Virus record (IMG/VR): IMGVR_UViG_2698536687_000001
Length of the DNA stretch: 64,000 nt
Direction: 5' to 3' (one strand)
DNA from: a virus
Taxonomy: Duplodnaviria > Heunggongvirae > Uroviricota > Caudoviricetes
A program made the translations under genes and the position numbers. Positions 29,815 to 30,318 of this stretch are shown piece by piece. Every line of letters begins with the position of its first letter. Position 1 is the first letter of the stretch. The notes under the pieces were generated by a model. The model was not told where the DNA came from, did not search any database, and saw only the letters and a program-made list of their open reading frames with translations.

Positions 29815-30318
29815 TGGTGATGGTTGATGGAATTGAACCGCCGTAGCTATTTCTTTATATCCAATAAACCTGCGTGGACTTTTCTGTGGCAATTCGCACA
29901 GAGGACAATGCACTTCCTTACTTCTTCCTTAAGTCGCTTTCGAGATCGACTACATAGGTTAGAAGGATCGCCTTCTTTGCCGCCAGGGTTATCATGGTGG
30001 AGGTCCAGAACTATAGGTTCTTTTTCTCCACAATTTTGGCACCCGATGAAGCGTTTATAACGAGATAAAAACTGACGGTTTGAACTTGTTTTTCTCGTTC
30101 TTGTTAACTTTATAAGCCGGCGCCTTGATTCATTGCTTGCATAACTCAGAGCATCTCTTTCCTTGGCGCACACCTTGCAAATATTTTGCAGGCCATCGCT
30201 CTTTCCTTTGTTTTTATGGAAATCGGAAGCAGGTTTTAGTGCTTTGCATTTGCTACAAATTTTCATCGGTATCCCACTGCTTACAAGGCAGACGCTCTAA
30301 CCACTGAGCTACACCATC
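29815..30318 (-). tRNA. tRNA-Thr(UGU)-like gene interrupted by an HNH endonuclease ORF (5-prime part 30276-30318, 3-prime part 29815-29846)
   Basis: Minus strand 30318-30276: acceptor GATGGTG, D-arm GCTC-AGTGGTTA-GAGC, anticodon arm TCTGC-CTTGTAA-GCAGT (anticodon TGT); then HNH ORF; then T-arm GGCGG-TTCAATT-CCATC, acceptor 3-prime strand AACCATC (6/7 pairs with 5-prime strand), A, CCA at 29815-29817. Confidence 0.5.
29847..30266 (-). CDS. HNH homing endonuclease, 139 aa
   Basis: Zinc-finger and HNH motifs (CSKCK...CKVC; HHDNP...CANCH); ORF starts 9 nt after tRNA position 43 and its stop abuts the tRNA T-arm. Confidence 0.75.
   Translation of the reverse strand: MKICSKCKALKPASDFHKNKGKSDGLQNICKVCAKERDALSYASNESRRRLIKLTRTRKTSSNRQFLSRYKRFIGCQNCGEKEPIVLDLHHDNPGGKEGDPSNLCSRSRKRLKEEVRKCIVLCANCHRKVHAGLLDIKK

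Follow-up and report, generated by a model that had tools for sequence, protein, structure and literature searches.

Anatomy of the locus

The minus strand of a 64-kb viral sequence (IMG/VR record IMGVR_UViG_2698536687_000001; "the window" denotes this whole stretch of DNA) carries a tRNA-Thr(UGU)-like gene split in two by an open reading frame (ORF) for an HNH endonuclease, a candidate homing-endonuclease gene (HEG). The window is a P1-like phage-plasmid, and the 2.2-kb segment used as a query is identical to the Escherichia coli plasmid pZBEC21_01 (NZ_CP143628.1). Coordinates refer to the window unless another sequence is named, the tRNA gene reads on the minus strand, and positions within it follow tRNA numbering (Table 1).

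The 5' part comprises tRNA positions 1-43 (30318-30276) and ends in an anticodon arm (30292-30276) presenting the anticodon UGU on a stem of four base pairs plus a U27.U43 mismatch; the loop CTTGTAA and the anticodon stem are the same as in trnT of phage P1 and in the intact tRNA-Thr of the lambdoid prophage L013 (CCTGC CTTGTAA GCAGG). The linker that follows contains a Shine-Dalgarno-like GGGA, six nucleotides (nt) upstream of the ATG, which is a putative ribosome-binding site. The 3' part is identical at 25 of its 28 positions to the 3' part of the prophage tRNA-Thr (L013, L006 and L025). The two acceptor strands pair at six of seven positions, with a G7.A66 mismatch, and the T-stem contains a C51.A63 mismatch. 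An earlier note, written from the letters of this DNA, had described an HNH ORF that splits a tRNA-Thr(UGU)-like gene, a description supported by both the anatomy and the match of the ORF product to PHROG 2255. Its minus-strand 5' part with anticodon UGU, ending at position 43, is correctly placed, its nine-nucleotide distance to the ORF (GGGATACCG, 30275-30267) is confirmed, and so is its six-of-seven acceptor pairing, to which the T-stem mismatch, left unmentioned there, must be added. The T-arm, acceptor strand and CCA that it saw beyond the ORF are indeed present, but the stop codon does not abut them directly, since CTAC intervenes.

Table 1. Features of the interrupted tRNA gene and its surroundings in window coordinates
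Feature	Coordinates	Strand	Remarks
Acceptor 5' strand GATGGTG	30318-30312	-	followed by TA (U8 A9)
D-arm GCTC/AGTGGTTA/GAGC	30309-30294	-	followed by G26
tRNA positions 1-25 (acceptor 5' strand, U8 A9, D-arm)	30294-30318	-	from the P1-type trnA (tRNA-Asn) gene; 98.5-98.7% homology to P1 and L027 from 31200 to 30293/30294
G26 and anticodon arm TCTGC CTTGTAA GCAGT	30276-30293	-	Thr(UGU)-type; start of the imported module
9-nt linker GGGATACCG	30267-30275	-	aligns with (A/T)AGGATACTG of the lambdoid alleles
HNH homing-endonuclease ORF (predicted), ATG...TAG	29847-30266	-	139 codons (139 amino acids and TAG); PHROG 2255
CTAC, 4 nt separating stop codon from T-stem	29843-29846	-	kept in all HEG-carrying alleles
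tRNA positions 49-76: T-arm GGCGG TTCAATT CCATC, acceptor 3' strand AACCATC, A73, CCA	29815-29842	-	
3' flank of the imported module	29772-29814	-	first 26 nt after CCA (TATACCAATGTGATGATTCTGCCGGT) identical in prophage contig L024
Whole imported module, 522 nt	29772-30293	-	replaces 691 nt of L027 (1106-1796)
P1 Pban promoters and C1 operators (Op72)	30972-31017	-	upstream of the tRNA slot; P1 46-nt segment aligns, score 82/92

The HNH protein

By sequence profile the ORF product belongs to the HNH (His-Me finger) endonucleases, matching PHROG 2255 "HNH endonuclease" (E=5.8e-39) and PHROG 3106 (E=2e-16); its match to Pfam PF01844 (HNH) lies below the cut-off (E=0.25) and a search of NCBIfam with it returned nothing. 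All the residues that are invariant in 20 homologues are present, namely C4, C7, C30, C33, C76, C79, D88, H90, H91, C123, N125, C126, H127 and H131. The protein has two CxxC...CxxC sites, the zinc-site cysteines being C76, C79, C123 and C126. In the AlphaFold model (predicted local distance difference test score, pLDDT, 91.4), strands 87-91 and 119-123 are followed by a helix at 124-131, and the catalytic His/Asn/His and a CxxC...CxxC zinc site are found in the beta-beta-alpha core. The best meaningful fold matches in the PDB are the HNH nucleases Cap5 and VcaM4I, none of them significant (E of at least 0.18), so that no close solved relative was found by fold, and by sequence the only match to a solved structure is the HNH domain of McrA (E=0.096). 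Pairwise ratios of nonsynonymous to synonymous substitution (dN/dS) among four distinct alleles range from 0.09 to 0.32, with synonymous divergence (dS) of up to 0.50, and the ORF is an intact HNH endonuclease gene evolving under purifying selection. A role as a defence-system component was considered and rejected, PADLOC giving only a marginal match (E=0.006), to a type IV restriction enzyme and its HNH core. Going by the source names given for the homologues, just one NCBI protein has at least 83% identity, a version of 134 amino acids truncated by an insertion sequence (P0004, L008).

Empty and filled tRNA-Thr genes in lambdoid prophages

Homologues with 86-87% protein identity are encoded in lambdoid prophage contigs, likewise between the halves of a tRNA-Thr(UGU). 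In these HEG-carrying alleles the acceptor stem GCTGGTT/AACCAGC is perfectly complementary, pairing at seven of seven positions in L006, L024 and L025. The E. coli lambdoid prophage L013, by contrast, has an uninterrupted tRNA-Thr(UGU) of 76 nt (GCTGGTT TA GCTC AGAAGGTA GAGC G CCTGC CTTGTAA GCAGG ATGTC GGCGG TTCGATT CCGTC AACCAGC A CCA). Upstream of the site, the metagenomic contig L025 shares 1,319 nt with L013 at 97.5% identity, and downstream of it 83 nt at 98.8%; between these flanks, 438 nt stand in L025 in place of GCAGGATGT, the nine nucleotides at tRNA positions 39-47. This insert consists of TGACCTAGGATACTG, the 420-nt ORF and CTA, so that 96% of it is ORF (420/438 nt). The nine nucleotides lost include the 3' strand of the anticodon stem, which is wholly absent from the lambdoid HEG-carrying alleles. 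L013 and L025 are thus a presence/absence polymorphism with a loss of nine nucleotides of the tRNA. Two further pairs differ in the presence or absence of the HEG at one locus: FelixO1 and wV8 at their Gly-Thr junction, and the window and its relative L027. The gene has its own start and stop codons and lies in an RNA gene, outside any self-splicing intron or intein.

The exact correspondence of one intact tRNA in L013 to both halves in L025, together with the complete complementarity of the halves in L006, L024 and L025, makes it very unlikely that the two pieces are unrelated, that is, that a FelixO1-type intergenic HEG (tRNA-X, HNH, tRNA-Y) came to lie between independently truncated tRNA genes. 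Such an origin would agree with the relatives whose gene separates two different tRNAs (FelixO1, for example, with the order Gly, HNH, Thr) and with the first 25 nt of the window copy, which come from another gene (trnA-Asn) than the remainder; however, a single crossover in common D-arm sequence explains that Asn/Thr mix.

The cassette was found in four contexts: 3' of dmt in P1-like plasmids, in the interval from antiterminator Q to holin (L006), after a methylase gene (L007/L024) and at the L013-type locus (L025). Scans of genomes, viral sequences and metagenomes for further independent HEG-carrying alleles returned only copies of the P1-like allele in addition to L024 and L025, and the four independent lineages are too few for a covariation test.

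State of the interrupted tRNA

In default mode ARAGORN finds no tRNA in the whole window. The Rfam tRNA model matches the 5' part only, with 26.7 bits (E=0.002 in 531 nt), which does not reach the gathering score of 29, and ARAGORN calls a tRNA-Thr(tgt) once the two parts are artificially joined, or in its intron mode. The resemblance of both parts to a tRNA is beyond chance, given the Rfam score, the near-identity of the 5' 25-26 nt to P1 trnA, the 25 of 28 positions matched in the 3' part and the ARAGORN call on the joined parts; there is nevertheless no complete cloverleaf at trusted thresholds, as a functional tRNA-Thr(UGU) would have.

Group I introns occur in bacterial and phage tRNA genes, such as the cyanobacterial tRNA-Leu(UAA), and introns elsewhere can carry HNH ORFs. 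The insert studied here is likewise large and situated in or near the anticodon arm, and could be imagined as a genuine intron, either self-splicing (of a degenerate or novel type) or processed by the host, whose removal yields a working tRNA-Thr(UGU). ARAGORN in intron mode does join the halves into a tRNA-Thr(tgt) with a 407-nt intron by taking a GCAGG within the His-Ala-Gly codons of the ORF as the 3' strand of the anticodon stem; this GCAGG is found in all five alleles, and the acceptor stem is complementary in every one of them. However, the GCAGG is part of CAC-GCA-GGT, which encodes a conserved protein motif and is also present in relatives adjoining tRNA-Cys, and the model requires a 26-nt variable arm devoid of a hairpin and gives Gly and Trp isotypes in L006 and L007. 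We rejected it on account of these inconsistent isotypes, the hairpin-less variable arm and the lost exon sequence. Unlike group I tRNA introns, the insert has no ribozyme, lacks part of the exon sequence and is essentially all ORF, which takes up 420 of its 438 nt and leaves a ribozyme core no space, and its junctions are devoid of the U(-1)/terminal-G pattern of group I introns. Searches for group I or II introns (including RF00028-type) with Rfam at E<=10, on 2.2 kb and on 531 nt, gave only the partial tRNA and noise, and the insert folds no better than shuffled sequence (z-scores -1.6 and -1.8, not significant). Above all, the filled allele has no positions 39-47, which its flank-matched counterpart retains, and clean excision would for this reason be unable to restore the tRNA. 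With neither a ribozyme core nor intact exons, an intron-containing tRNA gene of the group I type is not what lies here, and an intervening sequence of any kind is extremely improbable.

Of the two alternatives that the earlier note had left standing, the unusual intervening sequence can consequently be discarded, for want of nine nucleotides of tRNA and of any ribozyme signal in an insert that is 96% ORF, and the tRNA disrupted by a free-standing homing endonuclease is the one favoured by the L013/L025 pair and by the tRNA-array habit of the protein family (see below). The comparison with an uninterrupted locus in relatives, which it had proposed, was decisive in showing an intact tRNA that matches both halves, and the intron mode of ARAGORN joined the two parts, albeit with isotypes that disagree across alleles and a model that had to be abandoned. 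Its argument that acceptor pairing makes both parts one tRNA is valid for the ancestral cassette (7/7 in L006, L024 and L025) and, strictly, not for the chimeric window copy. The interrupted tRNA is, in all probability, a dead and dispensable accessory gene whose transcript is not spliced and yields no functional tRNA. Two of the four lineages have a mismatch in the T-stem (C51.A63 in the window, A49.C65 in L007), which fits relaxed constraint.

By comparison with the window, P1 has three tRNA genes (trnA, trnT and trnI). In RefSeq, PGAP annotates a contiguous 99-nt "tRNA-Thr" at 30217-30315 on the minus strand (NZ_CP143628.1, 32098-32196), which begins 3 nt within the acceptor stem and ends 49 nt within the HNH ORF, and no coding sequence for the endonuclease. 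The present analysis thus exposes an annotation error, consisting of a false tRNA and a missing endonuclease gene.

Relatives in lytic-phage tRNA arrays

More distant relatives (47-63% identity over the full length) occur in lytic phages, as free-standing genes within tRNA arrays. ORF47 of FelixO1 (NP_944871.1) and its homologues in Felixounavirus, Certrevirus, Flaumdravirus (KIL1) and Otagovirus (Bobbio) belong to the same PHROG 2255 family, have the same invariant residues and occupy the same tRNA-array neighbourhood, often adjoining tRNA-Thr(UGU). FelixO1 and the related contigs L020-L022 have the order tRNA-Gly, HNH, tRNA-Thr(UGU), and in the FelixO1-type layout the stop codon lies 1 nt before the tRNA; in wV8, Gly and Thr are merely 7 nt apart where FelixO1 has the HEG. 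The order in L023 is Glu, HNH, Thr(UGU); in Certrevirus phages the HNH ORF lies directly 5' of tRNA-Cys, and in wV8 and BPS17L1 5' of tRNA-Ser. The lytic-phage homologues end 1-4 nt short of an intact tRNA or inside its first 10 nt, whereas in the window and lambdoid alleles the gene sits between tRNA positions 38 and 48 and thereby inactivates the tRNA.

tRNA-Thr(UGU) is involved in five of about nine distinct contexts, which suggests, without proving it, that this HNH clade recognises the tRNA-Thr(UGU) gene, and points to a link of the clade with such genes across lytic and temperate phages. P1 trnT and the L013 tRNA share a run of 31 identical nucleotides (positions 18-48) that spans the replaced segment, and this common core is the predicted DNA target of the clade. 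Such a tRNA-Thr occurs in 597 of 5,426 E. coli genomes, mostly on P1-like plasmids, and with a similar gene on about 600 sequenced E. coli plasmids, potential targets are abundant.

In the unrelated lytic phages KIL1 of Pseudomonas (L028, 598-1086) and Bobbio of Pectobacterium (L032, about 601-1086), the HNH ORF runs into the 5' end of an intact tRNA-Thr(UGU), whose U8-A9-G10 are the TAG stop codon of the ORF, so that the same DNA encodes the end of the protein and the start of the tRNA. In the window, the TAG and the CTAC that follows it resemble tRNA positions U8-C13 and may be a vestige of positions 8-13 from an ancestral KIL1-like layout.

Origin of the copy in the P1-like phage-plasmid

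In the counterpart slot of P1, trnA (Asn, GUU) and trnT (Thr, UGU) lie 2 nt apart, 3' of the C1-controlled Pban promoters. From 31200 to 30293, the window is 98.6% identical to P1, from the end of dmt into trnA, and its 5' 25-26 nt are near-identical to P1 trnA; the D-loop of P1, AGCGGTTA, is present in a sister copy, L016. Among P1-like plasmids without the HEG the closest is L027, with the slot Asn-Tyr-Thr(UGU) followed by a hairpin unit (see below), and in blastn the 98.5% homology of L027 to the window extends from 31200 to 30294 and resumes at 29771. The 691 nt of L027 that have no counterpart comprise the remainder of tRNA-Asn, tRNA-Tyr, tRNA-Thr and the hairpin unit, and the module found in their stead holds tRNA-Thr positions 26-76 with the HEG and a 43-nt flank. 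This tRNA-Thr::HNH module begins at position 26-27, and the prophage contig L024 shares it at 87% over 30319-29737. By sequence comparison, the window pseudo-tRNA is an Asn/Thr chimera whose positions 1-25 derive from P1 trnA (Asn). The window copy is a secondary product, in which the 522-nt module replaced the 691 nt of a P1-like tRNA array, the left crossover having probably occurred in the D-arm sequence common to trnA and tRNA-Thr.

The six-of-seven acceptor pairing of the window is in part a by-product of the likeness of the two stems (GATGGTG and GCTGGTT), to which one substitution, T71, contributes. Three differences distinguish the 3' half from the lambdoid alleles (A57, A63 and T71), each of them as in P1 trnA; of the three, one re-forms a base pair and another disrupts one. 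No other donor of this half was found in IMG/VR, where its exact 25-nt sequence occurs only in P1-like copies. A GCCGGT after the 3' half was considered as a remnant of P1 trnT and rejected, as it aligns with the spacer of L027 before the second hairpin unit and is also present in L007 and L024. The HEG is rare, occurring in 7 of the 591 PLSDB plasmids that matched and in 4 of some 580 E. coli genomes, and the P1-like copies trace to one event because all are near-identical. The case shows how elements of this kind remodel the hypervariable tRNA slot of P1-like phage-plasmids, with Asn, Tyr and Thr genes lost here in one step.

A probable homing-endonuclease gene residing in phage tRNA-Thr genes

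We consider the ORF to be a selfish, free-standing HNH HEG that resides in, and spreads through, phage tRNA-Thr(UGU) genes, the tRNA halves being its homology arms, and give this explanation a probability of roughly 85%. In P1-type elements, the enzyme would be made from a lytic-cycle transcript of the C1-repressed Pban operon, Pban being the likely source of transcription through the cassette, and in lambdoid prophages from a transcript of the region 3' of the antiterminator. Translation would proceed from an AGGA/GGGA ribosome-binding site derived from A41-U45 of the tRNA itself. The enzyme would then nick or cut the intact tRNA-Thr(UGU) gene of a co-resident phage genome, near the anticodon-stem/variable-loop region, and the break would be repaired from the HEG-carrying allele through the conserved tRNA halves. 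The latter allele would be immune because its positions 39-47 are replaced. The insertion is tolerated because phage accessory tRNAs are dispensable.

Homing endonucleases with a comparable way of life are known. T4 SegB, a free-standing endonuclease whose gene lies in a tRNA cluster, recognises the T-psi-C motif and cleaves inside a tRNA gene of relatives that lack SegB; it cuts in tRNA-Asn of T2L and drives the preferential inheritance of its region (PMC2330249). Like SegB, a GIY-YIG enzyme, and F-TflI/II/IV of T5, the window HEG is free-standing in a phage tRNA cluster (PMC2330249). It would share with these systems a target within a tRNA gene of HEG-less relatives and spread by break repair with co-conversion of flanks, the composition of the array being altered as a by-product. 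However, the HNH protein is unrelated in sequence to SegB, and its gene lies inside the body of a tRNA, where it replaces nine nucleotides and kills the gene, whereas the SegB and F-Tfl genes lie between intact tRNA genes. Its hosts are also temperate elements (P1-like plasmids and lambdoid prophages), unlike T4 and T5. Another parallel is that of "fractured genes", in which a free-standing HEG has divided a protein gene and split inteins come to the rescue (PMC2677866); there, too, a homing-endonuclease gene is found between the halves of the invaded gene. Those halves are rejoined at the protein level, whereas no rescue of the window tRNA is apparent or needed, as the tRNA is dispensable. 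We found no description of this cassette, or of a tRNA gene body split by a free-standing HEG, in the full-text literature searched, an absence that is not proof. The event is an ordinary one for mobile DNA in a slightly unusual place, and the element is of a known kind rather than a new tRNA intron or RNA-processing mechanism. It provides a clean natural example of a HEG inside an RNA gene with no intron shielding the host gene.

Several points weigh against this explanation. The cleavage site, and even the DNA target, of the HNH protein are predictions. Efficient homing into P1 trnT is not evident, since the HEG is rare although apparently suitable targets number in the hundreds. Conservation of the tRNA halves and of the 3' flank is much stronger (four differences in about 66 nt) than that of the synonymous sites of the ORF (dS 0.42-0.50), which could reflect selection on the flanks rather than renewal by repeated homing. 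Finally, the acceptor stem is still closed in minimum-free-energy folds, and T71 of the window re-pairs with A2 of the strand derived from trnA.

The last of these points would be expected if the halves were kept for a role in RNA, with the acceptor and T-arm pairing across the 430-nt insert to give a tRNA-framed ("tRNA-scaffolded") mRNA that RNase P, 3' trimming and CCA surveillance recognise and whose stability or translation they set. Flank conservation, the closed acceptor stem and the compensatory T71 all speak for such a role, as does, in the lambdoid alleles L006 and L007, a CCTTG/CAAGG hairpin that covers the ribosome-binding site AAGGA. The SegB study itself proposes that tRNA processing reduces the expression of HEGs in tRNA clusters (PMC2330249). 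Yet the T-stem is mismatched in the window and in L007, the anticodon region varies freely between alleles, the fold z-scores are not significant, and four independent alleles are too few for covariation to be assessed. Conserved flanks would in any case arise were every homing event to strike a fresh tRNA gene under selection, and renewal through repeated homing into selected tRNA genes explains their conservation. We therefore regard a tRNA-framed message, including its recognition by tRNA-processing enzymes, as unlikely. In a weaker variant, the HNH clade would be a dedicated tRNA-Thr(UGU)-gene nuclease by which phages strip rivals of a tRNA.

Neighbouring and related features

Upstream of the cassette, the dmt ORF (30992-34279) encodes a Dmt methyltransferase of 1,095 amino acids, versus 754 in P1. 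It contains an intein of 341 amino acids (33026-34048, minus strand; CFTAGHMV...VVHN) that matches Pfam Hint_2 and LAGLIDADG_3 and interrupts the C5-methylase motif GTP|CQAFS, the catalytic Cys being the +1 extein residue. This second homing-type element lies about 700 nt upstream of the HEG cassette, and the intein-bearing Dmt is named "Dam family methyltransferase" in RefSeq. Between Pban and the tRNA slot, the "dicF-like region" of P1 is conserved at 30776-30877 (minus strand) and contains the sole terminator-like match in 29500-31100, a hairpin at 30792-30811. Weak Rfam matches to permuted transfer-messenger RNA (tmRNA) and beta-tmRNA at 30653-30821 (E=0.02-0.1) are apparent noise.

The P1-type slot is hypervariable, with arrays such as Asn-Thr, Asn-Tyr-Thr, Arg-Tyr-Thr..Ser, and Asn plus an odd element plus Ser. 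Its first tRNA (L003 2386-2462, L001 3881-3956, L004 2388-2463, L027 1082-1156) has a constant acceptor stem GATGGTG/CACCATC and D-stem and a variable anticodon arm, which is mostly Asn(GTT) but reads Arg(TCT) in L003 and in numerous E. coli plasmids. In the E. albertii plasmid pEA16-1_1 (L004, 2465-2598), a tRNA frame with the acceptor stem GCCGGTT/AACCGGC, a D-arm, a T-arm and CCA has about 85 nt in place of the anticodon arm and variable loop; ARAGORN is silent on it and Rfam gives a tRNA match of 13.5 bits to its 3' part. It is another non-canonical "tRNA with an insert" in a P1-type slot.

The tRNA slot is immediately followed by a long hairpin frame, CACAACAGGTAAGAGCA...TGCTCTT(A/T)CCGTTGTG, at about 29680-29775 in the window (minus strand), at 4036-4125 in L001, at 2636-2725 in L003 and, repeated, at 1329-1400 and 1812-1905 in L027. 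Its interior is variable, often with a T-arm-like GTAGAGTTCGACTCTCTAC, and its P1 version shows compensatory stem changes (GGTAAGGGTA/TACCCTTACC). Fold z-scores are -5.3 to -6.0 in P1, L027 and L003 and -2.4 in the window. Rfam has no match to the unit, which may represent a structured RNA that is so far unannotated or mark a recombination boundary. 3' of the slot, unrelated hypothetical genes, one of them a lipoprotein-like ORF at 29228-29641 (minus strand), stand in place of the plp-upl-tciABC-trnI segment of P1.

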